Source of the DNA: Tubulanus polymorphus | Lineage: Eukaryota; Animalia; Nemertea | Length of the DNA: 64,000 nucleotides | Reading direction: 5' to 3' | NCBI RefSeq assembly: GCF_964204645.1 | Contig: NC_134032.1 | Coordinates: forward strand, 3,930,175 to 3,994,174 | Part shown: piece after piece, positions 17,561 to 64,000 of the stretch | Layout: each line of letters starts with the position of its first letter | Position numbering within the stretch: position 1 is the first letter of the stretch | The notes under the pieces: generated by a model | Database searches by the model: none | The model's input: only the letters and a program-made list of their open reading frames with translations | What the model was told of the DNA's origin: nothing | Translations under genes and position numbers: made by a program

Positions 17561-17627
17561 TTTATTTTAGCTCTGATGCATGTGCAAATTTTACCATTCC
17601 AGGGGCATGGTTCACAATTTTAAAAGT

Positions 17628-19300: not shown

Positions 19301-19609
19301 ATAAACTCAATTCTAAATTCCAAACACTAAAATAGTCAGTGATGGGCACAGGTTTTCTATGTTCTCCCAATAGATACCAGACTGTCTCTATTGGCAATGG
19401 GGATACCTCCTAATTTCGCGGTCAATATATCGAAAATTTTGAATTATTTTAAGCTAACGAACTAGTTTGTTTTTGTTTCGTTAGTAGTATTTTTTTAATA
19501 TTCATAATTAACACTACTTTTGTTCTGCGCAATATTTATTTCTTCAGTTTTAATTTTAACATCTGATGGTGGGTTATCAATTAATGGATAGATTTTCTAT
19601 CCATATCAA

Positions 19610-20312
19610 AAATAATATTAAAAACCTTATATTCTCACGATAATTTTTAACAATCAAATAGTATTTTTGATTCAAAACCCATGTTGTAATCCCATAATGT
19701 CTCCCACTAAAAGCTCAATAGCATAATTATGTTTCTCGTATTTTTGAATCACGAACATTTGCACAATCATATATAATGAATAATGTATTTGAACCTTCAT
19801 GAATATCAATTGCTATTGCAATTCATTTAAATCTAAGTTATCTTTGACGACTTTAGGATTTAATATTATGAACTTTTTATTTTAGTTACAATATCTCAAT
19901 GATAAATTTTATTAAATTTATATGTAGTGCAGAATAAAACAATATTATCATAGTAATTTTTAGATATAGTTTCTAATAAATCTAAAATAAAGTGTGTTTT
20001 TCCACAATTTGTGAGACCACTTACTAAGGTGTTATGAGGCTCGAATATAAATAAACTTCTATCCATTTATTAAGATTATGAATTACTTATTTTACTTTTA
20101 ATTTTCCGGATTAGACTTATATTTGACTAAGCTATATTTTTTACCTCGAATCTTCTTTGTTTTTAAAACTTGTTCTATTTTATAATAGATATTATCTATA
20201 TAAGGAACTAATGTTACTTCTTCTTCATAGAAATAACCTAATATTTCTTCGTTTTGCAAATCATATAACTTATAAACAAATGGTTTAGTTAATATCAATT
20301 TTTTTATTTTAA
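19610..20312 (-). pseudogene. Polinton relic: integrase C-terminus followed by packaging ATPase
   Basis: KPFVYKLYDLQNEEILGYFYEEE..YKIEQVLKTK (20098-20312), then ATG at about 20067 giving FIFEPHNTLVSGLTNCGKTHFILDLL; same gene order as 54981-56136. Confidence 0.85.
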
Positions 20313-42734: not shown

Positions 42735-43002
42735 AGTAATAGGGATAATAGGCTTTCAAGCCAAAGGTCGAACGGTCGAGCTCGTAAAAAATGAAAAACA
42801 TAAAAATAATAACAATTTCTACTTGAATTACTCGCGAAACTCATAAAAATGAAAAATAAATTCTCACACGCTCGAATTTAATTTTCATTTTTATGAGTTT
42901 CACTCCTAATTCAAGTAGAAATTGTTATTATTTTCATGTTTTTCATTTTTTACTCACCCGCCCGTTCAACCTTTAGCTTGAAAGCCTATTATCCCTATTA
43001 CT
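42735..43002. repeat. 268-bp near-perfect palindrome just upstream of polB
   Basis: AGTAATAGGGATAATAGGCTTTCAAG... pairs with ...CTTGAAAGCCTATTATCCCTATTACT throughout, with small bubbles. Confidence 0.9.
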
Positions 43003-43094
43003 CTTAAAATATTCATATATATGAATAAAATATAAATGAATAAAAAAAAATCAAAAATCCTAAAATCAATTTTAATAAAAAATTTAGTATTAAA

Positions 43095-46000
43095 ATGGAA
43101 GCAAATAAGTACTACTGTCCAATATGTAAAATCAATATAGATAAATCCCAAAAAGCAAGACACAATAAAACTAAAACACATTTAGAGAATAAATTGAAAT
43201 TAGAATATAAAGATGATATATTAGAAACTAAATTAGATGAATTAAAGAATGAAAAAGAAACATACAAATGTGATTCATGTAATCAATCATTCAGTGATAA
43301 AAGATATTAAAAAGAACATTTAAAATCTAAAAGTCATATTAGAAATAAGAATAATGATATTTTAGGTGAAGATTATTTTGATAAAGATAATGATAAGAAA
43401 CAGAAGACAATTAAAAGAATAAGAAATAAATTAAACAATAAAAGACCATACATGGAAGATGTAAGAAAATATATTAATTTATTGGATAATAAAAAAGATA
43501 TAGAGATAACCGAAGCATTTAAAAGTGATATTGGCCTAGCAGCTATCGAGTTTAAATTTCATAAAGGAAAAACATTAGAAGAAAATAAAAAACATTTAGA
43601 AAATATGAAAGAAATAATAAAAATAATAACTGATGTTGAATACCCTAAAATTAGTATATCTTCTAAAGTTAAATTCATAAAATCTGAAGATAAACCAATA
43701 TATAATATAAATTCTCATTCACAACATATTATTTCAAAACAACATATAGATGATAAATTAGATAAATGTTATAATGAAGTAAAAACTAAAATAGAAGAGA
43801 AATATTTTGAAGGATCTGGTTTAATATTTGATGAAATAATATTTATGACTTTACATGTTTATAACACAAAATATAATAAGTTAACTAAATCGAAACCAAT
43901 AGATGAAAATAATTTATCTTATTATAAAGATGATAGTATAAATGGAACAAGTTATATTAAACTACCATTTAAAACTAACGCTGTAATAAATGTACAAAAT
44001 TTTGATGATAAATGTTTTCTATGGGTTATAATAAGTTGTTTACACCCAGTTGAAGATTATAAACAACATAGTTTTAGATTAACTCATTATAAACCATTTG
44101 AAAATAATTATAAGATAGATAAGTATCCTGTTAGAATTAAAAACGTACCAAAGATAGAAAGAGATAATAATTTAAGAATAAATGTATTTGATTTAATCAA
44201 ATTACCAAATACAAAAGGTAACAATATAAAACATTATACATTTGAACCTTTATATCTATCAAAAGATTATGATTCAAACGATGTTATAGATATACTATAT
44301 TATGAGAATCATTATATGTGGATTAAACAAATCGATTTATTCTTTAGAACAGAAAGTGATCACCATAATAAAATATATCTATGTAGAAAATGTTTACATA
44401 GATTCAGTAATGAAAGTACATTATTAAATCATAAACAATTATGTGAAAATCATGATTATTGTAAATTAGTTTTACCAAATGAAAAGGATGAAATATTAGA
44501 ATTCAAAAAATATGATTACAAAAATAAAGTACCATTTGTAATATATGGAGATTTTGAATCATTAAATAAAGAACTAACTGATCAAGATAGAAAAGAAATA
44601 TATTATAAAAGAAAGAAATTAAATTCTAATGAAAATGATTTTTCAGATGAACCACCAAAAACAAATACTATTAAAAAGATTCATCAATCAGCTGCAGCTT
44701 TCGGGTTATATATTAAATCTGATTATCCAGAACTAATTAAAAGTGAATATTATCATTATAGAAATGAAAATGTTATTAATCATTTTTGTGACTTATTAAT
44801 TGAATATGAAATAAAATTTAATGAAAAGTTAAATAAAAATATAGAAATTATAATGACAGAAGAAGATAAAGAAGCATTTGAGTTTGCGGATAAATGTTAT
44901 TATTGTGAAAAGATATTTAATTATAAAGATAAAAAAGTGAGAGACCATGATCATTTGAATGGAAAGTTTCGAGGCGCTGCACATGAGAATTGTAACTTAC
45001 AAGCTAAGAAAATTAACTTTATACCAGTTATATTTCATAATCTATCAGGATATGATGCACATTTATTTATCAAACAGTTATGTCATAAAATAGAAGAAAT
45101 TAATAATGAAATAGAAAGATTAAATTCAAATAGATCAAAAGATAAAATACCAACTTATAAATTTAGAATGTTAGCTAAAACATCTGAGAATTATATATCA
45201 TTCCAATTTGGTTGCCTAAGATTTATAGATTCATATAGATTTTTAAATAGTTCATTAGATAACTTATCAAAATCATTAGTTGATGATGAATTAAAGATAT
45301 TAAAAGAATATTACCCAAATAATGATGATTTTCAATTAATGAGATATAAAGGAGCAATTCCATATTCATTTTATAAATCACATAATGATTTCAATATAAC
45401 TGAATTATTGAAAGAACAATTTTATGATGAATTAAAATACGAATATGTTAAAGATGAAATATATAATAGAACATTGAATATTTGGAATCATTTCAAAATA
45501 GAAAATCATGGACAATTAGTAGATTTATATTTAAAATCAGATGTATTATTATTAACCGATATATTCGAAAGGTTTAGAGATGTAAACCTTAAATATTTCA
45601 ATATTGATCCTTGTCATTGTTATTCATCACCAGGATTAACATGGGATTGTGGATTAAAATTTACAGATATAAAAATGGATTTGTTAACAAATATAGATCA
45701 ATTATTATTATTTGAAAAATCTATAAGAGGAGGAGTTTCAGGTGTATTAGGTGATAGATATTTCAATGTAAATGATAACCCCGGATATAAGTTATTATAT
45801 ATAGATGCAAATAATTTGTATGGTTGGGCAATGATGGAACCACAACCTTATGGAGTATTTGAATTAACTTAAGTTTTACTGAATGAAAATAATGATAAAT
45901 TTGATTGGAAGAAACGAATTCTAGATATTGCAGATGATTCAGATACTGGTTACTTCTTTGTTGTAGATTTAGAATATCCTGAACATATTAAATTTAAATC

Positions 46001-47141
46001 TAGAAATCTAGCATACTGTCCCGAACATAAGACTGTAACTCATGAAGAATTATCAAATTACCAAAAAAGAATTAAACCCGAAAATCATTTTCATACAGAA
46101 AAGTTAATGGTAACTCAAGAAGATAAATATAATTATGTAGTATATTATAGAATGTTAAAGTTTTATTTGAATCAAGGAATGATTCTAAAAAAAGTACATA
46201 GATATATTTCATTTAGTCAATCTAAGTGGTTAGAAAAATATATAGATTTTAACACCAAACAGAGAACTAAAGCTAAAACTGATTTCGAGAAAGATTTCTT
46301 CAAGTTAATGAATAATGCATTCTATGGTAAGACTTGTGAAAATATTAGAAATAGAAATGATATTGAGTTAGTCAGTAATGGTAAAAGAATTAGACATTTA
46401 CAATCATATCCTAAGTTCATTGGTAACAGAATATTTGATGAAAATTTAGCCGCAGTTAAGATGAGAAGAACATCAATGAAATTTAATAATAAACCAATCT
46501 ATGTTGGTGCTTCAGTTTTAGAATTATCAAAATTACTAATGTATGAATTCTATTATAATGTATTACAAGCACTTTTTGGAGAAAAACATATAGAAATATT
46601 ATATTTTGATACAGATTCTTACATATTAAAGATAAAAACTGATAACATAACAGATGATTTAAAAACATTAAAACATCAGTTTGATTTTAGTAACTATCCT
46701 AAAAATCATGAATTGTTTAGCAATGATAATAAAAAAGTTCCCGGTAAATTCAAAGATGAATTAGGCGGTGAAGAAATGATTGAATTCATAGGTATTCGAT
46801 CTAAAATGTATTCATATAAAACTAAAGAACATGAAGCTAAAAAGTTAAAAGGAATAACCAAAAGTGTAGTAGAAAAGAATATTCATTTCAAAGATTATAT
46901 CAATTGTATATTCAATGAAGAAGTTAGAAAACATAAGATGAGATGTTTAAGATCTGAAGATCATGAAATGTTTATTGAAGAAATTGAAAAGATAAGTCTA
47001 AACCCATTTGATGATAAAAGATATATTTTAGATGATGGAATTCATACAGTTGCTTATGGTTGTAATTTAGATGAATACTTAAAATTTAAAAGAGAAGAAA
47101 CAAAAGAGAACGAGATAATGAAAAGAATTCTAACGTGTTAA
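43095..47141 (+). pseudogene. polB: Protein-primed family B DNA polymerase; one reading frame with two premature TAA (43308, 45870)
   Basis: Exonuclease motifs YGDFES, FHNLSGYDAH, YLKSDVLLL; polymerase motifs YIDANNLYGWAM, KLMNNAFYGK, YFDTDS; N-terminal C2H2 fingers; the three ORF-track pieces are in the same frame. Confidence 0.95.
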
Positions 47142-47170
47142 TCAAATCTTAATAAAAATATGTTATTAAA

Positions 47171-47524
47171 ATGGAGAGTAAACAAGCGCACAGTGAGAAC
47201 AACAAATAATTTCTAGATAGAATTAAAGATATAACAAATGTAAAATCTGTAGATTATAAATTCAAAAAGTTAACAGAATTAACAATTCATAAGAAATATC
47301 TAATTACAAATATTGTTACAGTTACTAACAAATATGGAGATAAATTAGTTATACACTTAGAATATGAAGGATTAAAAGGAAATACATATAAATTCAGAAC
47401 ATATTTACCTGATAGATTTCATAGATTATCAAGTGAAGATCTAGAAGAATTATGTTCTGGAGATTTCTATTTCGTATACAAAGGTAAGAATGAAAAAGGG
47501 CACCATGAAATAGATTTCGAATAA
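47171..47524 (+). pseudogene. Small Polinton protein, possibly an ssDNA-binding protein; early in-frame TAA
   Basis: Not in the ORF track; MESKQAHSENNK*FLDRIK..TNKYGDKLVIHLE..RTYLPDRF..YFVYKG; function is inference from position and beta-rich pattern. Confidence 0.55.
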
Positions 47525-47541
47525 GAAAATATGTAAAATAA

Positions 47542-48357
47542 ATGGTGGAATTAAAAGAATACAGAATATTTGTAGATTCTAGAAAACTTACAAATTATAA
47601 ATCACATAATTTATTAGTACAATTAGATAGAGAATTTAAGAATTGTGTAGATTTAAAATTAGTTAATATAAGTTTATGTAATTCTTTTTACAATATATCG
47701 AATAAAACTATTGAACATAATACTTTTTTAATTCATATTAGAAATGTAAATAAATGGTTTCATCTATTTTTAAAACAAGGATTATATAATTTAGAAACAT
47801 TAGCTCAAGAAATCAATCGTAGAGCACGGTTGAAAATTAGAAAAGATGATAAATTTTTAATAAGATTTATAAAAAGTGATAGCACAAATAAAATTAAAAT
47901 AAAGGTATTTGATGAAAGTCAACATGCATTTATAGTAAAAAAACCATTAGCTAAATTGCTAGGAATTGCACCAGATACCGTTACAGTAAACGTAGAAGGC
48001 ATTTCAAATATAATACCTTTTACACACTTTTATATTTATTGCAATTTAATTGATCCTACAAAAACTTTCGAAGCAACTAAAGATACAATTTGTAATTCTG
48101 GTTTATTAAATATTTTACCATTAAAAAATGTTAAACAATTTGGAACGCAAATAAATTATAATGTAGCTGAATGTGATTTCAAACCTTGTATTCCACATTT
48201 TAATAATTTTAAATTAGAAATAAGAAATCATAAGGGTTATTTAATTGATTTGAATAACTTTCCTGTAATTTATGAATTAGTTATAAGATGTAAAGAGAAA
48301 TTTTTTCATTATGTAAATGAATATAACTGTTGGACCGAGTATATGTTTTGGGTTTGA
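47542..48357 (+). CDS. Minor capsid protein (penton, single jelly-roll)
   Basis: IFVDSR, NSFYNI, GLYNL, YIYCNLI, LEIRNHKGYLIDLNN pattern typical of Polinton/PLV minor capsid proteins. Confidence 0.75.
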   Translation: MVELKEYRIFVDSRKLTNYKSHNLLVQLDREFKNCVDLKLVNISLCNSFYNISNKTIEHNTFLIHIRNVNKWFHLFLKQGLYNLETLAQEINRRARLKIRKDDKFLIRFIKSDSTNKIKIKVFDESQHAFIVKKPLAKLLGIAPDTVTVNVEGISNIIPFTHFYIYCNLIDPTKTFEATKDTICNSGLLNILPLKNVKQFGTQINYNVAECDFKPCIPHFNNFKLEIRNHKGYLIDLNNFPVIYELVIRCKEKFFHYVNEYNCWTEYMFWV

Positions 48358-48643
48358 TTTTAAACGTGAGAAAGAAATGAAATTTAACATTAATGATGTA
48401 ATTACACATATCAGAAATATTGCATTTTCTAATGAAACAACATTTGAGTATGAAACAACAATAGATAAAGAAACTTTAAATGTAGAAAAGATTGTTAATT
48501 TAATTAGAGAATCTTTAAGATTTTATGAATTAGATGAAGATTTTATTATAGATGATATTAAAAAAATAATAATTGAAATATATACAAATGAAACTAGTAA
48601 TGAAATAAATGTTGAATTAATCATAAATAAGATAACTAAATAA
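48317..48643 (+). CDS. Hypothetical Polinton protein
   Basis: 108-aa ORF with TAAATG start in the gene-dense block. Confidence 0.6.
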   Translation: MNITVGPSICFGFDFKREKEMKFNINDVITHIRNIAFSNETTFEYETTIDKETLNVEKIVNLIRESLRFYELDEDFIIDDIKKIIIEIYTNETSNEINVELIINKITK

Positions 48644-48673
48644 TTTGATGATAGTAATTTTTTTCATAAATAA

Positions 48674-48893
48674 ATGAGTGATAATAAGTGGATAATAACT
48701 GGATTATATAATGGCGCATTACTATCAGTTGGAACTGTTGGTTATTCAATGGTATTAAAAAAGTATTCAAAATGGGAAGTGTTAATGTTGATAGATTTGA
48801 TATAAATGATATTTTAAAATTAACATTAGCAGTTACTTTATCTAATTTAACTATTGATTATTTGGAAAAACAAAAATATATTCCTCCCATATA
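48674..48893 (+). pseudogene. Small hydrophobic (membrane) protein, one frameshift
   Basis: MSDNKWIITGLYNGALLSVGTVGYSMVLKK / FKMGSVNVDRFDINDILKLTLAVTLSNLTIDYLEKQKYIPPI. Confidence 0.6.
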
Positions 48894-48919
48894 AATGCAT
48901 AATTTTTTTTGCTAAATAA

Positions 48920-49342
48920 ATGGCTTCAGCAATTATAACTATTATAGGATCGGCAATTGTTAACGCTTTAGCATTTACTGGTGGTGGATATTTATTTAAA
49001 CATATTGATAAAAATAGTTCATTAGGAGAACAAAGAAGACATAACTTAGCGTTAGAGAAATACAATAAAGCAGCAGAAGAATATAGAGAAAAGAGGCTAA
49101 ACTATATGGATTACATCAATAAAGAATTATATGATCAGAATATTTCACATAGAGATTTTCAATCAGTTGATGATGCAATGAGTTTATATAACGCGGTAAC
49201 CAATAAAGAAAAATTACATCTATACAAACCTAAATTATCAGATTATTATACCCCGAGTAAAGAACAACAGAAATATGAAATAATTTGGATTTTAGGTGGA
49301 ACAGTTATTGTTATATTTGTTGCTTATAAGTTTACTAATTAG
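48920..49342 (+). CDS. Polinton protein with hydrophobic N-terminus and C-terminal TM helix
   Basis: MASAIITIIGSAIVNALAFTGGG..EQRRHNLALEK..IIWILGGTVIVIFVAY. Confidence 0.75.
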   Translation: MASAIITIIGSAIVNALAFTGGGYLFKHIDKNSSLGEQRRHNLALEKYNKAAEEYREKRLNYMDYINKELYDQNISHRDFQSVDDAMSLYNAVTNKEKLHLYKPKLSDYYTPSKEQQKYEIIWILGGTVIVIFVAYKFTN

Positions 49343-49363
49343 TAATTTTTTTTTGCTAAATAA

Positions 49364-49798
49364 ATGGAAGATAAAGTTGATAATACTGATATTATTCCTC
49401 ATGATATAAATAAAACTAAATTAAAAACATATTTAGAAAAACAAATATTAGAATTTGAAAGTGACTTAAAAGTTAAAAAGAAAAAATATCTAAAAAGTAA
49501 AATTATATATTATTTGATTATAAGTGGTTCGGTTACAATTAGTTCTGTAATAACATTTCTAGCAATATTCAGTCCATTAACACCTTTAGCTATATCAATT
49601 GGTGTATTAGGATTAAGTTCAAGTGTTTTAACTGGTATAAGTTCAAAATTAAATATAAAAAGTAATAAAGAAAAAATTAAAACTAATATAAAAGAAATTA
49701 ATAAATTAAAGAATACACTAGATTATATAATAAGTTTAAATGGTCATATAACAGTTGAAGAACAAGATAAATTATTAAAAGAATTAATAAATTATTAA
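49364..49798 (+). CDS. Two-TM membrane protein flanked by coiled coils
   Basis: Hydrophobic hairpin IIYYLIISGSVTISSVITFLAIF / LAISIGVLGLSSSVLTGIS. Confidence 0.75.
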   Translation: MEDKVDNTDIIPHDINKTKLKTYLEKQILEFESDLKVKKKKYLKSKIIYYLIISGSVTISSVITFLAIFSPLTPLAISIGVLGLSSSVLTGISSKLNIKSNKEKIKTNIKEINKLKNTLDYIISLNGHITVEEQDKLLKELINY

Positions 49799-49814
49799 TT
49801 TTTTTATTAAATAA

Positions 49815-50590
49815 ATGGTAGATAGTTTTCCAAAAGCTTTCCAATATAATAAATCAATTAAATATAATATTCTATTATATGATAATTTTAAACAAGAAAA
49901 CAATAATGGTTGGGTTTATTTCATTTTAGAAAATAGTGAAGGTTTTACTAAAGCCGGAATACAAAGAATAAATCAATCTATTAGAACTTATTTGATATGT
50001 ATTTTAGGTGCGCAAGTTGAGCAAGATCCCCAATAATTGGAAATTTGAATACATCATTCGATACACAAAAACAATTCAAAGTATTATTTGATGATTCCAT
50101 ACATAATGATAAAAATAGATCGATTCCAGAAAACATTATAAGATATCAAAATTATTTAGATAAATCTCATGTAAGGCTTAATTATTGTATAGGCCCTAAT
50201 CTATTAATTATTTCTAATGATTTAGTATTAAAGATGGGAAATATAATTGGTTATAATAATCTAATTAAAACTGCAACAATAAATAATTCATTTGGATTGA
50301 ATGATATATATAAAATATATATAATAAAAAGATTATTACTGCTCCAAAATTAATGGAAGGTGAAAAAAATAAAAAACATATTCAATCAACTGAAACTAAA
50401 ACTAAGAATGTTAAATAAAATAATGATTCTAAAATAAAAGATTACAATACATCAGAAAATATTAAAACTGATATTATTCAACATGATATAATTAAAACTG
50501 ATAATGATAATAAATCCCATGAAAATACTAAATTAGCTATAACTTGTATAGGAATTGTAATCGGAGGAATATTATATTTTAAATTTTAAT
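49815..50590 (+). pseudogene. Conserved Polinton protein, internally deleted and frameshifted, C-terminal TM
   Basis: GFTKAGIQRINQSIRTYLICILGAQV; homolog at about 13920-15220 is ~570 bp longer. Confidence 0.75.
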
Positions 50591-50605
50591 TTTTTTATTA
50601 TGTAA

Positions 50606-52051
50606 ATGGATGTAGAAGGTGGAGAAGATTATGAAATGGGAGAAATGGGAAATAATAATGAAGGATATATTGATGATGATTTTAATGATGCAGAAACTAA
50701 TATTGATAATGACGGTAATGAGCCAGAATATAATAATAATTTAAATATGCATGATTATATTAAAAATGCAGAATCAAAATTATATCCTGAAAATTTAGAC
50801 CCATATTTAGTAAAACAAGATTTAGATAATTTAAACAAAGTAGCTAAATTAGAAGATTTAATTGAAAATTCTAAACTTAACATAAATGATGAAGACGTTG
50901 GACCTTTAGCAGATCAATTAAGATTTTTAGATAATGGTAAATGTTATTATCATTTCAAAGATGATTATTATATTGATATCACTTATAAAAATAATAAAAA
51001 TAAAATATTAACAAAATCAACTTTGAGTGATTTAGATCCAGATAGAATTAAAAGAATAAGTAATATTAATGAAATAGAAAAAGATTTAACACAAACAGAA
51101 ATGAATAAAAATAGAGAAGTATTTAAACAAAGAATTAATGAATTATTTGAAATAATTAAAAAGAAATCAGAAACAGAAACAACTTCTGAACAGAATATAA
51201 CTACCAAAAATAGTAAACTTAAATCAAATAAAGTTCCAATTGAAAAACTTTTACCGAATGGATTACTTGATGCAACAGATCAAGAATTAGAAGATTTAGA
51301 TATATTTTCTGATAAAGCAATTAGAGAAATTATTAGTATAAGACTTGCATCTGATAAAATTGCGCATGATAAAAGTATAAGAGATTTTAAAATTAGAACT
51401 TTAGAAAAAGAATTAACTGATAAAAATAAAGAAATAGAACAATTAAAGTCTGATTTAGATCATCAAGTAATTGATGAAATAGAATATAGGCAAAAAGAAT
51501 TACGTTTAGAAAAAGAAAAAGATGATTTAGAATATAACATAGAATTACAAAAAGAACAAATTAAATTATTATTAAAATCATATGATTATAATATTGATAG
51601 ATTAAAAGTTATTTTTAAAGATTTGTTGATAAAACCAGATTCTAAAATATCATTGAAAGATAGAATAAAGTTATTATTTAAATTAGAAGGAATAACAATT
51701 CTTTCAATTCTAACAGCTGTAACTATGTTATTTACAACAATTGGTTTAGCAATATCAAATGCTTTAAAATCTACTCCTACTCCCAATAAACCAGATAAAC
51801 CCCCAGGTAATAATTCTATACAAGATACAGTTAAAGATGGTTTAAAGAAATTAACAAAATATTTATGGGAACTATCTAAAAAATCTGCTGCAGCATTGCC
51901 AGGAATTATTGCATCAATTGTTGGTTTTATATTGAAATCTGCAGGAAACATTATTAACTTTGCTGCTGAACATATTATTTTATTTTTAATTACAGTTGTA
52001 AGTGCTATTATTTTTGGGTTAGTGAATATGATATCAAAATATATCAAGTAA
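50606..52051 (+). CDS. 481-aa coiled-coil protein with C-terminal hydrophobic helices (putative virion membrane or entry protein)
   Basis: Acidic N-terminus, long heptad region, then ITILSILTAVTMLFTTIGLAI, ALPGIIASIVGFIL and IILFLITVVSAIIFGLV. Confidence 0.8.
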   Translation: MDVEGGEDYEMGEMGNNNEGYIDDDFNDAETNIDNDGNEPEYNNNLNMHDYIKNAESKLYPENLDPYLVKQDLDNLNKVAKLEDLIENSKLNINDEDVGPLADQLRFLDNGKCYYHFKDDYYIDITYKNNKNKILTKSTLSDLDPDRIKRISNINEIEKDLTQTEMNKNREVFKQRINELFEIIKKKSETETTSEQNITTKNSKLKSNKVPIEKLLPNGLLDATDQELEDLDIFSDKAIREIISIRLASDKIAHDKSIRDFKIRTLEKELTDKNKEIEQLKSDLDHQVIDEIEYRQKELRLEKEKDDLEYNIELQKEQIKLLLKSYDYNIDRLKVIFKDLLIKPDSKISLKDRIKLLFKLEGITILSILTAVTMLFTTIGLAISNALKSTPTPNKPDKPPGNNSIQDTVKDGLKKLTKYLWELSKKSAAALPGIIASIVGFILKSAGNIINFAAEHIILFLITVVSAIIFGLVNMISKYIK

Positions 52052-52117
52052 ACATGATATCAAAAAATATCAAGTAACCATGATAAAAAATAAATAATTA
52101 ATTTTTTTGTTAAATAA

Positions 52118-53367
52118 ATGAGTGGGGGAGTTATATCAATCCTTCTAAGAATCATAGAATATCTAATGCTATTAAAGCAGAAAGATCTCATCATATAATT
52201 ACTCATAACCCTTCAAATATTAATCCCGATGAAACTTTATATGTTAGAATTCCTCGATTAACACAAAATACTTTTTATGTTCCAAATAGTATTTATTTAT
52301 CAGCCGATATAAAAGTAATCGGTAATAATAATAATTATGTTGTTGATAATGTTGGAAGATATTTGATTAAAAAGTTAACAATAAAGATTGTTCCAGAAAC
52401 AGTTTTCTCATTAGATGATTATAATTTATTTATGCATTATAAAGATTTATGGTTAACTAAAGAAAATAGAAATAATATGATATTTCAAGGCATTCAATCG
52501 AAAAACCATAATAAATTAGGATCAGGAGCTAATGACGCAATAGTAACTCTTGCCACAGATAATTTGATAAAAAAGATTTATGGAAGCAAATATAAAATTC
52601 CATTAGACTTTGAATTGATAAATAATAATGCACCTTTATAAAAATACGCAATTCAAGAAGACGTTATATTCGAAATAACATTTGCTCCTGAAAATGAAAT
52701 TGTATTATCTAGCGTTGTTAAAGATATGAGTTATAAATTATCGAATATATGTTTAGAATATGATACAGTAACTGATGAAAATATTTCAAGTATAATTCAA
52801 ACTCAATACAATCAAGGATTTTCATTATTATATGATTATATTGATAAATTTAAAACCGTAACTATTAATGCAAATGATGAAATGATTAATGAGAATATCA
52901 ACTTCCCAAGAAGATCTATTAAAGGTATATTAATATTTTTTACCATTGCAACATATACTAATGGCGCAATAAATGTTGATAATTATTATAATCCTGAAAT
53001 AACAAAAGTAGAAATAACTATCGAAGGAATAGCAAATAAAATATTTTGTCAAGGAATGAGAATGATAGATCAATGGCCAGAAATTAGAAAACATTTTATG
53101 AATGAAAAAGTAAAATCATCTGAAAATTGTAACATTAATCAAATTGATTATTATACCGGCAATAAATATGCATTATGGTTAGATTTTAGAACAACAGAGG
53201 ATAATTCATTACATGGTTCTGGAAAAAAACTACAGAACACTAAAGATGGAATACAATTATTCATGACAAAGAATAAAGGAATCAAAAATTTTAAAATGCA
53301 CATTTATATTATATCTGATGCGCAATTAAATATTGTAAATTCACAATTAGATAGTGTTATGTATTAA
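52118..53367 (+). pseudogene. Major capsid protein (double jelly-roll hexon); frameshift near the start and TAA at 52639
   Basis: ITHNPSNINPDETLYVRIP..NICLEYD..NINFPRRSIKG..LWLDFRTTEDNSLHGSG; strongly similar to 61944..63014. Confidence 0.85.
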
Positions 53368-53399
53368 CATTTTAACTTTAATAAAAATCTATATAATAA

Positions 53400-54560
53400 A
53401 TGGAAGGTGGAATATATGAAATACAAACTCCAAGTGAAATGATATCAGATATATATTATATATTACCTTAGGATGAATACATTAAGTATTTTGGAGATTA
53501 CTTTAATCAATTCAAATATAGAATAAGTAAAATAAAAGATAATATTGAAACTAAAATAGAAAATAATATTGAAACTAAAATAGAAGATTAGAATGATATT
53601 GAATATAAAATAGAAGATAATATTGAGACTAAAATAGAAAATAGTAATAATATTGAAACTAAAATAGAAGATGTAACAGCATCTACATCTTATAATATAC
53701 CCTCTACATATGATATTGAATCAAAAAAAGATTATTATAATCCAAAATATTGTGATGTATGTAAGAAATATATATCATATAAAAATTGGGCATCACATAA
53801 GAAATCAAAGAAACATATAGAAATAGAAAAGAATAATAATGATAATAATATATCAGTAAGTAATATAAAAGATAACGTTAACCCAATTGAAACTAATGAT
53901 ACCATAGATAGTATAACAGATAATGTAATATATAATGTTAACCCAATTGAAACTAATGATAATGATATAACAGATAATGAAATAATTGATGATTCTAAAA
54001 AACATTGTAACATTTGTAATTTAGATATTTCTAAAAGTAATTTTTCTAAACATAAAAAATCTAAGGGGCACATAGAAAATGAAAAAGAATTAATATGTGA
54101 TTATTGTAATAAAGAAATTGAACCTGTTGATAAAATTACTCATTATAAATCAAAATTACATCTAATTAATGTTTATAAAAAAGTGGGTATGTTACCATTG
54201 TTAGATGAACCAAAGAAATATATCAAATATTTTAATCCTGAAACTAAACAATATCATATATTCTTTAAGTTGTTATTTGATAAATTATTAGCTTATGCAG
54301 AAGATAATCCTGACCAAATATATAAATTAGCGTATAATGGATACCTAGATTTATTTAATTTAATAAATGATTTTGAATTTGATTTTGATGGTGATAATTC
54401 TAATGATTACTTTGAAAAATTAAGAATAAAAGCTGGATTAAGTGATGATGAACGTAGAATGAAGGATGAAATAGAATTAATAAATATGCCAAATACTTCT
54501 GATGAATTTGATATAAACAAAGATGATTTCATAAATGTATTAGAAACAAAATTAGAATAA
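53400..54560 (+). pseudogene. Zinc-finger protein with IETKIEDN-type repeats; in-frame stops
   Basis: Three CxxC..H...K.H fingers (CDVCKK..HKKSKKH, CNICNL..HKKSKGH, CDYCNK..HYKSKLH); TAG stops near 53469 and 53589. Confidence 0.65.
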
Positions 54561-54569
54561 TTATTATAA

Positions 54570-54960
54570 AACTATTTATATATCTATAAAAATATTTATA
54601 TATCTATGCACTAGACGTATGAGTAAGAAAGTAAGAATCCAAGAATCCTTGCCAAGAAATATAAATTATAAACATAAATTATAAACATAAATTATAAACA
54701 TAGATTATAAACATAAATTATAAACATAAATTATAAATATAAATTATAAATATAAATTATAAACATAAATTATAAATATGAATTATAAACATACTTTTAA
54801 TATATGATTTATTCATTATTATATATTTCATTTAATAATTCATATTTCTATGGACTAGACGTACGTAAGAATCCAAGATTCTTGCCAAGAAAGTTAAAAG
54901 GTAAGAATTTACTTTCTTACTCATACGTCTAGTACATAGATATATAAATTAGTTTCTATA
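54570..54960. repeat. Inverted repeat enclosing a 12-bp minisatellite at the junction of convergent gene blocks
   Basis: 40-bp arms 54595-54634 and 54909-54948; about 11 copies of ATAAATTATAAA(C/T). Confidence 0.85.
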
Positions 54961-54980
54961 ATATTCCAAATTATAAATAG

Positions 54981-55592
54981 TTATTTCATAAATTTATATT
55001 CATAGGGAAATTGTAATCTCAGTAATAATTTTGAACCTTTATTATTCTTTAATTTATTCATATATTCATCATGTAATTCAGTAGGTATAATTTGATTTTC
55101 TTCCAATGATTGTTGCATCGATTTTTTATCTTTATTGTAGAATAAAACTAGAAATCTGATATTCTCCCTAAAGTCTTTAACAATTGAATTAAATTTTTGA
55201 TTTAAAACCCATGTTGTTATCCCAAAATGTCTCCCAGAGAAAGCTAGATAACATAACTCACTTTCTCTAACTTTTGAATCATGTAAATTTGCGCAATCAT
55301 CTACAATGAATAATGTATTTGATCCTTTATAAGTATCGATTGCTATTTTAATACAATTATCTAAATTTTCTTTTACTGTTTTAGGATCTAATATAATAAA
55401 CTTTTTCATCTTAACTATGTCTCTATTATATGTTTTATTCATTTCATAAGTAGGACAGAATAATATTATATTATCAAAATGATTCTTATAAATAGTTTCT
55501 AACAAGTCTAATATGAAATGTGTTTTACCACAATTGGTTACTCCAGTAACTAACATATTATGCGGTTCAAATATAAATAAATCTTTATTCAT
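54981..55592 (-). CDS. A32/FtsK-HerA DNA packaging ATPase
   Basis: Walker A GVTNCGKT, Walker B LFIVDD, SGRH arginine finger, LNQ. Confidence 0.93.
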   Translation of the reverse strand: MNKDLFIFEPHNMLVTGVTNCGKTHFILDLLETIYKNHFDNIILFCPTYEMNKTYNRDIVKMKKFIILDPKTVKENLDNCIKIAIDTYKGSNTLFIVDDCANLHDSKVRESELCYLAFSGRHFGITTWVLNQKFNSIVKDFRENIRFLVLFYNKDKKSMQQSLEENQIIPTELHDEYMNKLKNNKGSKLLLRLQFPYEYKFMK

Positions 55593-56554
55593 TTATTTTT
55601 TTAATTTTACTAGATAAAATCCATTCATTAAATTTATCATCGTATCCTTTATATTTCACGATAGAATACTTTTTTCCTTTAAGAGTTTTTGTTTTCAATA
55701 CTTTTTCTATTTTATATTCTATTTCTTCTGGATTTGGCACAAGTGATAATTCTTGTTCATAGAAATAACCTAATATTTCTTCATCTTTTATATCTTCTAA
55801 TTTATAAACAAAAGGTTTAGTTAACATTATCTTTTTAATTTTAAATATTTCTTCAGTAAAATTAGGGGTATAACCTTTATAAAAGGTTTTTCTATATTTA
55901 GATATTCTTACGTGTTGTCCTATTTTAAATTTAGGTCTTCCGAAATCATGTGTAACAAATGCTCCATATAAATTATTCCATACTATTTCTGAATTATCTT
56001 CTTTTCTAGCTTGTATAGGTTTCATATTTATAGAACTATGTTTAGAATTATTATAACCTTTCACTAAATCATCTAATACATCGATATATTTATATGTTTC
56101 ATAAGCAGTAAAATATTTCCACATTCTAGTTTTCAATGTTTTATTAAATCTTTCTATAATAGATGCTTTTTTATCTGAATGTGTTGAAAAATAATCTACA
56201 TCGTTATCAGATAATAGTTTTTTGAAATGCGTATCTACTGAATATCTCTATAACATTTAATATCCAGAAATATCGTATGTTGTATTCCTCTATGTTCTTC
56301 ATGTCAATTAAATTTGCTTGCCATTGTTGATCAATATATGAAACCATAACTTTTCTTGTTAAATAAGTTTTATCCATTTTCTTGTGGATTTGATATGTTG
56401 GTTGAATTTGTAACCATGATTTTAATTCACTATATTTTATATTACCATTTTCCTTATCAGATTTAATTTTACCCCATAATTCTGTAACGTTAGAATATGA
56501 TACTTCACTCTCTGGGTTATAATATAAATCTCTTAAATATTGTTCTTTTTTCAT
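55585..56554 (-). pseudogene. Retroviral-like (rve) integrase with C-terminal chromodomain; core partly deleted
   Basis: YYNP..WQANLIDM (first catalytic D reads N)..IFSRYAF, then jumps to KASIIERFNKTLK; chromodomain YKIEKVLK..VKYKGYDDKFNEWI. Confidence 0.9.
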
Positions 56555-56560
56555 CTTATT

Positions 56561-56920
56561 TTAATCCATCAATATTAATCTTGGTTTATTTTCAATGACT
56601 TTATCATTTGACTTATTTGGTATGATAGGTTTGTTGTCAATGGAATCATTATTGTTATCATCAGATTTGAATTTTGATTTATATATTACACCGGAGAATA
56701 TAATAATTGTAATTAACCCAATTGTAATATATAAGTAATTATTTCTTCCACTATTAGAAGAATCAGATGGATTATTATTTGAATCAATATCAGGTGATTC
56801 ATTTATATCAGTTAATTTCTTTTTCTTAGCTTTTTTTAATTCTGAAGATCTTTTACCTAATTCTCTTGCCCATTTAATTTGTTTTTCAGATCTAACCTTT
56901 TTCTTAACGCTATCACTCAT
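56561..56920 (-). CDS. Basic protein with a single TM helix
   Basis: RSEKQIKWARELGKRS..LYITIGLITIIIFSGVIY. Confidence 0.7.
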   Translation of the reverse strand: MSDSVKKKVRSEKQIKWARELGKRSSELKKAKKKKLTDINESPDIDSNNNPSDSSNSGRNNYLYITIGLITIIIFSGVIYKSKFKSDDNNNDSIDNKPIIPNKSNDKVIENKPRLILMD

Positions 56921-57507
56921 TTATTTTAGTTAATTTTTGTTCTGATTCATTTTCTGTTTCGACGTTTGGTTGTAGTTCATCTGTTTCATTCTTACCTGAT
57001 TTATATTCCATAGGTTTGATGTTCGAAAATGTTATGACGCCAGTAGAAATTAATGTCATAACCGATCCTAATTGAAATGAAGCGTATCCAACCCATTTTT
57101 GTAATTCAGTCATAACTAAGTAGTCATTTTTCAAATCACTATATAATTTATTTTCATCATTAATTGGTATTAACTGGTTACATAATTTTGAATAACATTT
57201 GACAATACCATCTGAAATAGAATCATTTATTCGGGCTAATCTTGCCTCTTCATAAATCTTAAAATATTTTATTACTTTATCTGGTTTCATAGCATCTAAT
57301 TCTTGAAAAGTAATGATTCTATTTAAAAACTCTTTAGTTTTTCCACCGGAAATCAATAGTTCTAGATGATGCTTACAATATAAATAGTATTCATAATCAA
57401 TATTACAATTAACAATTCGTTACAACTGTATCTTTATTATCACTTATACCCAAATCATCTAATGTCTTTTCAATATCAATACTATTCTTATTAGATTTCT
57501 TTGACAT
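56913..57507 (-). pseudogene. Conserved Polinton protein (homolog of 63667-64000), 5' part disrupted
   Basis: YEEARLARINDSISDGIVKCYSKLC matches YENRYSAAVSDSLINSILYGYSKLC; TAAATG start at 57507. Confidence 0.7.
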
Positions 57508-57754
57508 TTATATTAGAGAAAAAAAGCAAAAAAAATATTATAAGTATTCTTCAAATGATACTAGTATCTCTTTGGGTTAATACTAGTTAGTTAAAGGTAA
57601 AGAATTTTAGTATTAGTTATTGTTTTTTTAGTATTTTTTATTTGTGATATAAAGTATTCTTTTTTGAAAAGAAAATACTAAAAATATAATAGAATTCACT
57701 AGCTAGTTGAAGTTATTGTTTTTTTAATATTTTTTATTTAAAATCTATTATTCT

Positions 57755-58230
57755 TTAACCACTCATTAAATACTCAACGTATTGTTCATTATTTGGATCC
57801 TTGTTCCATTGATCAATAAATTTCTTTGCCTTTGTTAACTGTTCTAAATATAACTGTAAATCTAGTTTATTAGATTTGATTTGATTTTCTTTCTTTTCTA
57901 AAGGCCTTAAATTTTTCCAACCCCAAATAAGTTTTTTATTGTATTCATCATTCATATTAAATTTAGATATTGGTAACACGTGATCAATATGGTAATAATC
58001 CCCATAATTATCTATATTCATTTTATCATCGAATTGAAATATAATCCATGATTTGAGAAATTCAACCCAAGAACAACCCAATAGATTAGATAGTGTTTCT
58101 GAATGTGTTTCTTTGTTGAATAATTGTGTTAATCTAGATCTTAAGCATTGTTTCAATCTAAAATTAATATCTGTTTGATATCTTACTCTCATATATTCTG
58201 TCATATAATCATTGTAAGCTTCCCTATTAT
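57755..58230 (-). CDS. HNH (endonuclease VII-like) nuclease of the type common in large DNA viruses; 5' end lost
   Basis: LLGCS..MNIDNYGDYYHIDHVLPISKF..WKNLRPLEKKENQIKSNK. Confidence 0.8.
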
Positions 58231-58907
58231 ACGCGACGAGTGAGGGTTCGGGGTAGCAGACGAACCCCCTTAATTTTTTCAAAATTAACATATATTTTTC
58301 AGGTTTTTTTTCTTTGATATGCCTATGATAAATGATAAGCCTTAGCTTCGTTTCTCATCTTCTTCCTACGGACCGAATTTCAGCTATTCCGACCGTTCCA
58401 ACTATAAATGGATGATAGATGTGAGTATATTTCGCAAGATTTCTGATATTTTATTCGTGCCAAATTGTGTCAACCATAAAGTAACTTTATTTCTCTAACG
58501 GTAGATAGCTATCATGAATAAGACTGTATTCGTATCAAATTAATTAAACAAATATGCGAGAGTGCGTGCAAACAGTATGATACCATCAATCCTATATGGC
58601 GAATAGTTTGACAGTATCTCTAATGAATGGTGAATAGCTATCACCAGTAAGACTTGTAAATAAGACATTTTGTAACCACACGGATCTCTATCTCGTGAAA
58701 TTAATTTATCGATTCATCAGAGAATGCAGCCATTCCATGCAGCGGAGACGACCATCCATTAATATTACATGGAAATATGAGGGTTAAGATTTGGATGCTA
58801 ATTTGATTTGCTAGAATTTGAAGGCAAACAAGAAATTACAATAGGATATAACATTTAGAAGTTTCTAATAGATCTGTAACTCCTAACGTGCTACTTGTTG
58901 ATCCGAG

Positions 58908-59858
58908 ATGAATTATACTGAGATGCACTTAGTTGGACGACCTTACAGCAGTTACATCGTTCTAATGGCATTGGTGAACAAGTCTGGCACCTACCGTACA
59001 GTTTCATTGGTCATACTGCTTGTCATGTTCTTGTTAGGAGCGTTTGGAAATTCGGCTACATTCCTGATAATGATAAGTCGCAGATTCCGCAGTTTATCTT
59101 ACGCTAACTACCTGATCGCTTTGTCTATCAGTGATTTAGTGTTCTGTGTCGGTTTTACACTGATGCCTATTTTACAGTTTGTTCTCTTTAGTCCAAAGAC
59201 TGGTGAAATAATCTTGGTAGATTCACTGATCAGTTGTCAAATATACGAATTCTTAATAAATTCCATGGGCGCCAATAGTGCCTGGTTAATAGTAGCGATA
59301 TCTCTAGAACGTGCGACAGTTGTTCTCTTCCCGTTCACATCTCGTTTGATATGTACACCAAGATTCGCCCGATGCGTCATTGCTTTTATGTCAACAATAA
59401 ATGCATTCGTAATTGGTGTTCATCCTGTAGCAACAATGAAATTTGTTTATCCTTTCGGATGTTACTACAAGTCTTCGGACCAAACCTTACTTTTTATGGT
59501 ACGTGTAATATACGTTTTTCTTGTACCGTTAACTTTCATAATAATATCAAATTCAGTCATAATAATTCAGTTATTCAGAGGTTCAAAAATGGTTTCGTCC
59601 GATCAGAAAACTACAAAATCAAAACGTACAACAATAATGCTTCTAACAGTTTCACTCGCATTTGCAATTTTTACACTGCCAAACTCTCTGGTCGTACTTT
59701 TACCAATCTCACCGGAACATACAGACTTCCTCATAGATATTTCCTCCCAGCTCGAATCGTGTAATTATGTCGTGAATTTCTACATATACCTTTTACTGGG
59801 ACAAGAAATTCGTGAATATTTCTGTATGATAATCCGCTGTAGAAATTCATTAAAATAA
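58908..59858 (+). CDS. Intronless class A GPCR, paralog of 31354..32313
   Basis: 7TM; GNSAT, LSISD, SLER, NYVVNFYIY. Confidence 0.92.
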   Translation: MNYTEMHLVGRPYSSYIVLMALVNKSGTYRTVSLVILLVMFLLGAFGNSATFLIMISRRFRSLSYANYLIALSISDLVFCVGFTLMPILQFVLFSPKTGEIILVDSLISCQIYEFLINSMGANSAWLIVAISLERATVVLFPFTSRLICTPRFARCVIAFMSTINAFVIGVHPVATMKFVYPFGCYYKSSDQTLLFMVRVIYVFLVPLTFIIISNSVIIIQLFRGSKMVSSDQKTTKSKRTTIMLLTVSLAFAIFTLPNSLVVLLPISPEHTDFLIDISSQLESCNYVVNFYIYLLLGQEIREYFCMIIRCRNSLK

Positions 59859-61943: not shown

Positions 61944-63014
61944 TTGAAACTCACGTTCGACCTCAGCAAAGAGGGTCCGGCTAATAACTTCTTCGTGAAC
62001 AACATTTTGAGGAACCTAATGGCCAGAATCGTTGACAAACTGGGTGGTGAAATCTTATCGGATTTGAACTACAGCTTCGTCTTCCAGACCTACAAAGATC
62101 TGTGGCTTACGGACAAAAGGCGAAGTAACATGATTCTGGATGGAATCGGCAACGAGAACTTGAGGAAACTCAGATCGGATGCAGAAGACGCCTTCAAAAC
62201 CAACACCAAGGAAACGATGATCAAGTCGGTGTTTAAGAACAGGTACGCCATACCCATTGATTTCGAACTGTACACGGACCACGGTCCTTTCTATCCGTTC
62301 GCAATCAACGAGGACTTTGTTAGGGAGATCACTTTCAACGAAATCAAGTTCACTGTAACCGGGAGTGCGGAGGCATGGGGATACTCCGTGAAAAATATAG
62401 CCCTCGAATACGACACCGTGCATTCGGCGGAGCTCGCCAGACAGATCGAAGCCGACCTGTCCGCCGGGGTAAGCTTCTTGTACGACTACGTCACGTTCTT
62501 CAGGAGTCAATCCACGGGAACCTCGACAATTCTGAACGTAAACGTTAACGTTCCCCGAAGGTCGATGAAGGGCCTGTTGATATTCTTTCAAGAAGAGTTT
62601 GACAACGGGCAGTACGATTCCGAATCCACCTCGTTTCAGAACCCTAACATCAAGAACGTCGATGTCACGATCGAAGGAATATCTCACAAAGTGTACAAGC
62701 AAGGACTGAAACCTTACCAACAATGGGAAGAGTGCAGAAGATTTCTGATGCCAGAATCGGCCAAAGAAACCGACGAGTCGCACATAGACGAGTTCTCGTT
62801 CTTCGTCGACGACAAATACGCATTGTGGATCGATCTCAGAAGCACAGACGACAACTCGCTTCACGGATCTGGTCTAAGGTTGGTCAACACAAAGGACGGC
62901 GTTCAGTTAGCCATCACCCGTACCAGCACAATGGAGTACACGATGTTCATTTACGTCGTAGCCGACGCCCAAGTAAACATCCAGAACAACCAATTAAAGG
63001 CGATTCTGTTCTAA
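61944..63014 (+). CDS. Major capsid protein, 5'-truncated
   Basis: YKDLWLT..NIALEYD..NVNVPRRSMKG..LWIDLRSTDDNSLHGSG; lacks the N-terminal ~60 aa seen at 52118. Confidence 0.85.
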   Translation: MKLTFDLSKEGPANNFFVNNILRNLMARIVDKLGGEILSDLNYSFVFQTYKDLWLTDKRRSNMILDGIGNENLRKLRSDAEDAFKTNTKETMIKSVFKNRYAIPIDFELYTDHGPFYPFAINEDFVREITFNEIKFTVTGSAEAWGYSVKNIALEYDTVHSAELARQIEADLSAGVSFLYDYVTFFRSQSTGTSTILNVNVNVPRRSMKGLLIFFQEEFDNGQYDSESTSFQNPNIKNVDVTIEGISHKVYKQGLKPYQQWEECRRFLMPESAKETDESHIDEFSFFVDDKYALWIDLRSTDDNSLHGSGLRLVNTKDGVQLAITRTSTMEYTMFIYVVADAQVNIQNNQLKAILF

Positions 63015-63026
63015 TGTATAGCGGAG

Positions 63027-63638
63027 ATGGATAGGCTTTGGTTACAGCCCCCGTTCAACATGATTGTGTCGGGGCAAACGAACTGCGGAAAAACGCACTA
63101 CGTGCTCGACCTCCTACAATCTGTCTATCGCAGCAAATTCCACAATATAGTGATTTTCTGCCCGACTTTCCTCGAGAACACCACCTACGATAGATCGTTT
63201 GTGATGAAGGACCCCAATATCTTCGTCATGAACCCGGGTTCGGTGTTAAACGACCTAGACGGTTTGCTTTCCACGTGCACCAAAGTATACGGCGATCCTC
63301 ATTGTCAAACTCTGTTTCTTATAGACGACTGTGCCAACTTGAGGGATACTAAAACCAAGTCGTCCGAATTGACGAAACTCGCGTTCTCGGGCCGTCATCT
63401 GAATATCTCAGTGTGGGTGCTCACTCAAAAATACAACGCCGTTGTGAAAGATTTCCGAGAAAACCTGAGAATGTTAGTCCTGTACCACCAAAAAGACGAG
63501 GATGGTTTAAAGGATGCTCTGCGTGAAAACAACATCGTCCCGAAAACCAAAAGGGAACGTGTGATCGCAGATCTCTCTGCTAGGAATCGGGCCCGTCTCG
63601 TCATGCGCCTCGAGTATCCATTCGCCTACGGGGTTTAA
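63027..63638 (+). CDS. A32/FtsK-HerA packaging ATPase
   Basis: GQTNCGKT, LFLIDD, SGRH; 203 aa like 54981..55592. Confidence 0.93.
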   Translation: MDRLWLQPPFNMIVSGQTNCGKTHYVLDLLQSVYRSKFHNIVIFCPTFLENTTYDRSFVMKDPNIFVMNPGSVLNDLDGLLSTCTKVYGDPHCQTLFLIDDCANLRDTKTKSSELTKLAFSGRHLNISVWVLTQKYNAVVKDFRENLRMLVLYHQKDEDGLKDALRENNIVPKTKRERVIADLSARNRARLVMRLEYPFAYGV

Positions 63639-63666
63639 ATTTTGGACGACTAACATATAGCGAACA

Positions 63667-64000
63667 TGGACGAAGTCTACGACGAACTACTGAGTGACAT
63701 TGGGTTGGATGTAGAATCACCCGAAGACGACGAGTCGGAAGGGCGCAGGCAGCTACTTGTCGGGCTTTCTCAGAGCGGGTTGCTTGCAAAAATAGGTATC
63801 AAGAAATCCGAAGGTCAACTTAAGAAGATGAACTCAAAAGCGCTCGAACGGGTGTGGACGGAGTACGAAAACCGTTATTCCGCCGCGGTTTCCGACAGTC
63901 TGATCAACAGCATACTCTACGGTTATTCCAAGCTCTGCAAGTGGTTCAGACCTAACGTAGACACAGAACAGCTAAACAAGGAGTTGACTGAAAACTTTGT
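63667..64000 (+). CDS. Conserved Polinton protein, partial at the window edge
   Basis: Open frame MDEVYDELLSDIG..YGYSKLCKWF; homolog of 56913-57507. Confidence 0.75.

Follow-up and report, generated by a model that had tools for sequence, protein, structure and literature searches.

Analysis of a 64,000 nt stretch of the nemertean Tubulanus polymorphus (NCBI RefSeq assembly GCF_964204645.1, contig NC_134032.1, positions 3,930,175 to 3,994,174 of the forward strand; hereafter the window, in which position 1 is the first letter) revealed an AT-rich Polinton, from 42735 to ~58300 (~15 kb, ~22 % GC), in which nearly all genes share one start signal. This signal reads approximately AA(A/T)TTTT, then ~8 nt and then TAAATG, at fixed spacing and with the start codon as the last three letters. 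With moderate confidence, and by comparison with known viruses, we read it as a probable poxvirus-type post-replicative promoter for which a co-infecting helper virus would provide the RNA polymerase.

Exact TAAATG was confirmed at all 12 starts for which the initial annotation had claimed it: 47542, 48317, 48674, 48920, 49364, 49815, 50606, 52118 and 53400 on the forward strand, and 55592, 56920 and 57507 on the reverse strand. This amounts to 12 of the 15 element starts, against 1.2 expected from the upstream composition of each start (p 2e-11), or to 12 of 16 if the motif-less open reading frame (ORF) with an HNH-like domain at 58291 is counted. At the non-start ATGs of the element TAAATG was seen in 35/602 cases, and in combination with a run of six Ts in 1/602. 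Runs of 6, 7, 8, 9, 7, 7, 7 and 7 Ts lie within 25 nt of the starts at 48317, 48674, 48920, 49364, 49815, 50606, 52118 and 57507, as had been described, and such a long run is missing at the four remaining TAAATG starts, 47542 (penton), 53400, 55592 (ATPase) and 56920. The three exceptions that had been named are correct, with polB (43095) and the putative SSB gene (47171) beginning at TAAAATG behind AATAAAAA and the integrase (56554) at TAAGATG, but that list was incomplete, as the HNH-like ORF also lacks the motif. An out-of-frame exact TAAATG stands at 43033, 59 nt upstream of the polB ATG. Most window starts coincide with the N-termini of intact homologs; those at 43095 and 50606 had no homolog match within the first 80 codons and that at 53400 had a weak match only. 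The motif also persists on the minus strand of diverged relics elsewhere in the window, at 13899, 15219 and 20066. Among 40 of some 100 variable sites in reads over 48560–49460, none falls in the three TAAATGs of that region.

Relatives were drawn from metagenome loci by capsid alignment (the best 80 of 98 confirmed), and the counts given for them refer to homology-anchored starts, in loci that had two or more of them. A quick tree, built from 42 capsids with no reference virophage capsids among them, placed the AT-rich capsid of the window within a 13-row clade (Shimodaira–Hasegawa-like approximate likelihood-ratio test, SH-aLRT, 99) and grouped the GC-rich window copy with L011/L012. In a core group of 14 related loci of 20–44 % GC, 12 of them in the clade of the window capsid and two (L017 and L034) assigned by identity only, TAAATG was found at 34/41 anchored starts. 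It was also found at 12/12 starts in L043/L047/L057, at 4/7 in L038/L039 and, in partial loci off the tree, at 1/2 in L051, 1/2 in L059 and 2/3 in L061; a single origin in the core and L043 groups was not rejected (approximately unbiased test, p-AU 0.23). The motif is kept at 40–44 % GC in L006 and L007. Conversely, TAAATG stood at 0/34 starts in the GC-rich sister group, 0/8 in L010/L032, 0/2 in L030 and 3/137 in the outgroup set, where two of the three cases belong to L053 (not on the tree). Outgroup loci at 26–36 % GC had TAAATG at 0/22 starts and AAAATG at 16/22, and 80 IMG/VR kinase-gene loci, many of them labelled GVMAG, had it at 34/809 first-ATG starts (21/292 at ≤30 % GC); G-protein-coupled receptor (GPCR)-like host ORFs gave 0/3. 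As the AT-rich outgroup and the kinase-locus controls are both low, TAAATG is a lineage-specific trait; AT content does not account for it, and it is not shared in general by the viruses of those kinase-gene loci.

Scans of IMG/VR with the capsid and ATPase and a scan of prokaryote genomes yielded no relatives, and the P0046 cluster, whose capsid homologs are 56 % identical to that of the window and are labelled Bartonella sp., lies on short contigs and is probably host-derived contamination. A close relative carries a deoxynucleoside kinase gene with a TAAATG start (L002:10340-10981; PF01712, E 1.7e-31); outside its own group its relatives, at 30–44 %, are all unnamed, and no donor was found.

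The signal extends upstream of the hexamer. A T lies 9 nt upstream of TAAATG in 12/12 window starts and 49/59 starts of relatives; for TAAATGs of these loci that are not starts, the figure is 24/87 (p 4e-11). At 10 nt upstream, T is present in 42/59 starts of relatives, and A peaks at −15/−14 (71 %). Head-to-head genes have paired TAAATGs that lie 15–29 nt apart; back-to-back pairs whose ATGs are separated by 24–29 nt occur in L008, L009 (two), L014, L016, L057 and L061, and most of these share an A/T core. The initial annotation had split the starts into two promoter classes, with genes of DNA metabolism set apart from the rest, and this division was not upheld. The A-rich form is present at the penton, ATPase and zinc-finger genes as well, the T at −9 is common to all 12 window TAAATG starts, and the polB, SSB and integrase genes of relatives use TAAATG. 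In close relatives, the A-shifted core is again found at the penton, the ATPase and the zinc-finger gene, and the T-shifted core at the capsid and membrane genes. These variants do not map onto DNA metabolism: in L002 both the SSB-like gene and the integrase start with TAAATG, as do the L003 integrase and the L059 polB, although the integrase of L001 lacks it. Set against the poxvirus intermediate type, with its TAAA initiator, its A-rich core 15–19 nt upstream and no T at the 10th nucleotide, polB and the putative SSB gene of the window have the A-tract but retain a T at −12 from the ATG as in other starts. On our reading there is a single promoter type, whose core may be shifted towards A or towards T, rather than two classes sorted by function, and it is possible that the two kinds of core confer two strengths or timings.

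The Kozak rule calls for a purine at −3, and a T at this position makes a poor context. The pox-like character claimed for the starts was borne out to the extent that the signal is conserved, lineage-specific and of fixed spacing, runs counter to the −3 purine, is not yielded by the composition controls and matches the post-replicative promoters of poxviruses. In the late promoters of vaccinia virus, TAAAT(G) overlaps the start codon and the 10th nucleotide upstream is a conserved T; its intermediate promoters lack that T and are A/T-rich 15–19 nt upstream (PMC11980589). The Polinton signal is alike in its start-fused TAAATG, its T about 10 nt upstream and its A-rich stretch further up (PMC11980589, PMC5294985); it differs in that T peaks at 9 nt and the A- and T-features are joined in one pattern. 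The fit to the vaccinia late type is close, at one base off. According to our proposal, the polymerase of a pox-type helper virus would transcribe the element from its TAAATG signals. Slippage on three Ts produces a 5′ poly(A) leader in vaccinia (PMC6211774), and by analogy transcription of the element would start inside the AAA, the polymerase would slip and such a leader would be added. If so, the T at −3 would never enter the mRNA and its Kozak context would be irrelevant, because initiation would lie inside the AAA behind a slipped leader. By analogy with mavirus, integrated copies would stay silent until a helper infects the cell, and would then be expressed, replicated by their own polB, packaged and re-integrated. 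The TAAATG signal would in this respect work as the promoter match of a virophage to its helper does; that endogenous copies might also act in antiviral defence is pure analogy. AATAAA is not avoided on the coding strands (observed/expected 0.98 against 0.80 in AT-rich controls), which lends weak support to transcription by a helper.

Several observations weigh against a pox-type helper. No helper candidate emerged from IMG/VR, where 15 scattered matches to the full motif were obtained but in no case did most starts follow the grammar. Compared with the vaccinia figure, the T peak is nearer by 1 nt. The host poly(A) signal is part of AATAAATG, the reading at 9/12 window and 26/59 relative starts, and 3′ ends have AATAAA nearby more often than expected (27/61 against 14.3). 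The related loci are not independent, and as several are near-identical pairs, the counts from relatives overstate their independence. Gaps of −2 to 46 nt between divergent genes also occur in lineages without TAAATG, short gaps being family-wide, and compactness alone is consequently no pointer to a pox-type polymerase. Some adintoviruses, moreover, are reported to be transcribed in fish tissues (PMC8502044). Two further sequence patterns do not discriminate, as TTTTTNT is depleted in all three groups of loci and GT(A/G)AG in none.

The strongest alternative, which we nevertheless regard as unlikely, is that host RNA polymerase II transcribes the element in the nucleus from compact element-specific promoters, perhaps with an element-encoded zinc-finger factor; AATAAATG would then also serve the preceding gene as its poly(A) signal, and the T-tract would act as a downstream or initiator element. 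The frequency of AATAAATG at starts and of AATAAA near gene ends agrees with this, as does the chromodomain integrase, which requires the nucleus. However, 33/59 starts of relatives do not read AATAAATG, head-to-head genes without a co-directional upstream gene still carry TAAATG, and T is retained at −3 whereas AT-rich relatives use AAAATG. In addition, the 151 AATAAAs in 56 kb of coding strand represent no depletion.

A less probable alternative still is that a pox-like polymerase is supplied by a helper other than a poxvirus, namely a cytoplasmic linear plasmid or a larger Polinton-like element, as pGKL2 serves pGKL1 in yeast. Transcription of the pGKL elements relies on a pox-related polymerase, with slippage at a TAAAN initiator (PMC6211774), cytoplasmic linear plasmids are described as derived from polintons (bioRxiv 2024.03.18.585575), and no poxvirus was found in this analysis. 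Against this, the pGKL upstream element resembles early promoters of poxviruses in the published account, whereas the Polinton signal has a late-type T-tract and a fused ATG, and no polymerase gene was present among the Pfam-scanned proteins. Finally, an origin of TAAATG as a by-product of AT-richness, Kozak preference, stop–start fusion or splice acceptors, to which the ~22 % GC of the element and the identity of TAA as a stop codon might point, is very improbable and has largely been refuted by the composition-based expectation of 1.2/15, by the 0/22 of AT-rich relatives, by motif retention at 40–44 % GC, by TAA being the stop of the upstream gene in just 2/59 starts of relatives and by 12/12 window and 48/59 relative starts having no AG over the 11 nt nearest the ATG. 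For the TAAATG group, stop–start fusion was rejected on the former of these last two counts, and a splice acceptor because, in the window, the T-run is not followed by an AG.

Poxviruses and asfarviruses belong to a single class. The GC-rich lineage represented at the right of the window was noted at the outset to be without TAAATG, and this stands for its starts at 63027 and 63666 (the latter had been placed at 63667); what had been missed is that this lineage appears from its sequences to have a start grammar of its own, a T-run and then TATA, which is new here and resembles the late promoters of asfarviruses. In the sister loci L011, L015 and L018, TATA lies within 25 nt of 18/23 starts (4.0 expected; 0/500 shuffles), and in L010/L032 of 8/8 (4.0 expected). 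Across the sister loci and the two window starts it is positioned 5–20 nt before the ATG, too near for a TATA box, since a TATA box lies 25–30 nt before the start site. TTT precedes TATA by 9–17 nt at 11/20 starts and at 26/130 other TATAs (p 0.002). Enrichment in the outgroup is weak (20/87 against 13.1 and 15/24 against 9.8). In the late promoters of African swine fever virus (ASFV), TATTT occupies −15 to −11 and TATATA −1 to +5, and the sister lineage is like those of ASFV and pacmanvirus in its T-run ~11–15 nt before a TATA initiator and in its short leader (PMC5294985, PMC7458399); the likeness rests on three loci and two window starts, and TATAG could partly be a splice acceptor. A transpoviron of pacmanvirus carries the TATATA of its host (PMC11788076). 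For the GC-rich sister lineage we propose a helper of the asfarvirus type. The GC-rich outgroup loci L019, L023, L025, L027, L040, L065 and L067 have features of their own: TTTGAAC recurs upstream of the family-wide 442-aa gene, and some divergent genes overlap at CATG.

The Polinton in the window is an endogenous one present in many copies, and the copy seen here has decayed: polB, the putative SSB gene, the capsid gene, the integrase and four further genes are damaged (Table 1). DNA-read depth over most of the element is 340–880-fold, compared with values of 92 and 182 for two flanking bins. Ahead of 42735, the ends of 1355 reads are loose and disagree with one another. Together these figures indicate many copies at many sites. 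The left end sits at 42735, and no right terminal repeat was found in the window copy; 131 reads connect positions 43206 and 57861 across opposite strands, the pattern expected if other copies have a right repeat. At the left foldback, ~108 reads give a shorter form without 42836–42901. Read depth over 53780–55107 is 5- to 20-fold below the rest of the element, marking a cargo region that varies among copies. Inverted repeats with short tandem units adjoin the 3′ end of the ATPase gene in the window (54561–54991) and in relatives (L003:3720-3837, L004:3092-3177 and L002:9173-9340); their place is constant among loci while their sequence differs, and a terminator or an origin is possible.

Table 1. 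Genes, termini and relics of the Polinton lineages in the window
Feature	Coordinates	Strand	State, start and similarity
Relic, lineage of the window element	12453..15322	-	TAAATG kept at 13899, 15219
Relic (ATPase/integrase)	19585..20312	-	TAAATG kept at 20066
Left terminus	42735..43002		begins AGT; 268-nt foldback, two 129-nt arms, 90 % complementary
polB	43095..47141	+	broken; TAAAATG; 29–43 % to L059 polB pieces; PF02945 domain
Putative SSB	47171..47524	+	internal stop; TAAAATG; 33 % to L002:125-469
Predicted penton / minor capsid protein	47542..48357	+	TAAATG, A-rich core; predicted-fold match to mavirus penton
ORF, function unassigned	48317..48643	+	TAAATG, T6 run
Small conserved gene	48674..48894	+	frameshifted; TAAATG, T7 run
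Conserved gene, hydrophobic ends	48920..49342	+	open; TAAATG, T8 run; 79 % to L002
Two-transmembrane-type gene	49364..49798	+	open; TAAATG, T9 run
Family-wide gene, function unassigned	49815..50589	+	deleted and frameshifted; TAAATG, T7 run
Coiled-coil/membrane gene	50606..52051	+	open; TAAATG, T7 run
Probable major capsid protein	52118..53367	+	frameshift and stop; TAAATG, T7 run; 74 % to L002
Zinc-finger gene	53400..54560	+	contains stops; TAAATG, A-rich core
Spacer between convergent genes	54561..54991		inverted arms flanking 13-nt tandem array
A32-type packaging ATPase	54981..55592	-	open; PF04665 E 1.2e-11; TAAATG, A-rich core
rve integrase with chromodomain	55585..56554	-	frameshifted; TAAGATG; 72–84 % to L003
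Basic/membrane ORF	56561..56920	-	TAAATG
Conserved gene, function unassigned	56913..57507	-	frameshifted; TAAATG, T7 run
HNH-like ORF near right end	57755..58291	-	HNH_4 E 0.035, weak; first ATG without motif
GC-rich sister-lineage fragment (capsid, ATPase, next gene)	61950..64000	+	TATAG 10 nt before ATGs 63027, 63666

Judged by its genes, the element appears largely to conform to the Polinton pattern. The polB translation contains YIDANNLYG, KLMNNAFYGK and YFDTDS, which we take to be polymerase motifs; it had no DNA_pol_B_2 match in the Pfam scan, as described for the divergent Beta class. A structural model of the 47542 product (predicted local distance difference test score, pLDDT, 61.5) matched the mavirus penton 6g41 in Foldseek (E 5e-6) and that of Sputnik (E 1.3e-4), a predicted fold which identifies it as a single jelly-roll penton. 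The 52118 gene probably encodes the major capsid protein: its homologs P0037/P0038 carry PF16903, and the atlas neighbours (0.97–0.98) of homolog P0016 are capsid-type clusters, with capsid families in 10–24 % of members; a PDB sequence search with the capsid gave no match. The integrase homolog in L002 matches PF00665 (rve, E 1.5e-10) plus Chromo. Neither a family nor a protein-atlas match was obtained for the 48317 ORF, the family-wide 442-aa protein (an intact homolog) gave no fold match above Z 4.8, and three proteins without assigned function had no useful PDB sequence match. Pfam recognised no Ulp1/adenain protease in the window or its relatives, where several genes are still without a family, and no RNA polymerase subunit in the 66 proteins and pieces scanned, which came from the window and from loci related to it.

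Among known systems, the animal Polintons or Mavericks (Polintoviricetes), which include the adintoviruses, share with the window element polB, a rve–chromodomain integrase, an A32-type ATPase, capsid and penton genes, a length of ~15 kb and integration in multiple copies (PMC8502044). The difference is that no adenain protease was recognised here and that each of the lineages examined closely has a start grammar of its own. The word ‘promoter’ is absent from the main text of the adintovirus paper (PMC8502044) and had no match in the accessible text of a coral polintovirus paper (PMC11131425). Polinton-like viruses (PLVs) occur in the occlusion bodies of entomopoxviruses (AHEV_PLV1/2, CBEV_PLV1 and Ca_PLV1; PMC11296320), where they are tied to poxviruses and have been proposed to be hyperparasites. 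These are physically found with their poxviruses, measure ~12 kb and have a protease and no rve integrase; the main text of that paper contains no TAAAT or promoter analysis. The endogenous mavirus-like elements (EMALEs) of Cafeteria offer a further parallel, being integrated rve/polB elements whose promoter motifs differ by type (PMC10945749). Virophage types carry the late promoter of their helper (PMC10945749), and of the EMALE types, which bear distinct promoters, only that with the late motif of the Cafeteria giant virus CroV is reported to be induced (PMC10945749; bioRxiv 2025.10.09.676808). In that system, however, the host is a protist, the helper CroV has a TCTA motif (PMC5294985), and induction and protection were demonstrated by experiment. 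Our literature search found no paper on TAAATG promoters in animal Polintons, supplements aside and with subscription journals mostly uncovered.

Beyond the Polintons, the window contains single-exon GPCR-like ORFs at 58908–59858, 31354–32313 and 10719–11663, the first of which matches 7tm_1 (E 3e-17) and is 73–82 % similar to 31349–32285 in inverted orientation. The 7tm_1 match shows that the host is an animal. A long 20-nt tandem array occupies 17587–18850, and there are segmental duplications, such as that of 21.2–25.6 kb with 35.7–40.9 kb.

In summary, animal Polintons are widespread and often abundant, and a helper-type promoter code would bear on their expression and mobilization and would bring a way to sort lineages by their likely helper. 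We suggest, tentatively and as a possibility that we would not call probable, that different lineages within a single family of animal Polintons, present together in one animal genome, have each adopted the late-promoter code of a different cytoplasmic helper, with TAAATG of the pox type and a T-run plus TATA of the asfarvirus type. If this is true, the host carries a library of helper-specific, inducible virophage-like elements, comparable to the EMALEs of protists, and the promoter code predicts undiscovered poxviruses and asfarviruses of invertebrates. Should the TAAATG signal indeed be read by a pox-type helper, virophage-like dependence would reach integrated elements of animals and would point to poxvirus-type viruses of invertebrates.

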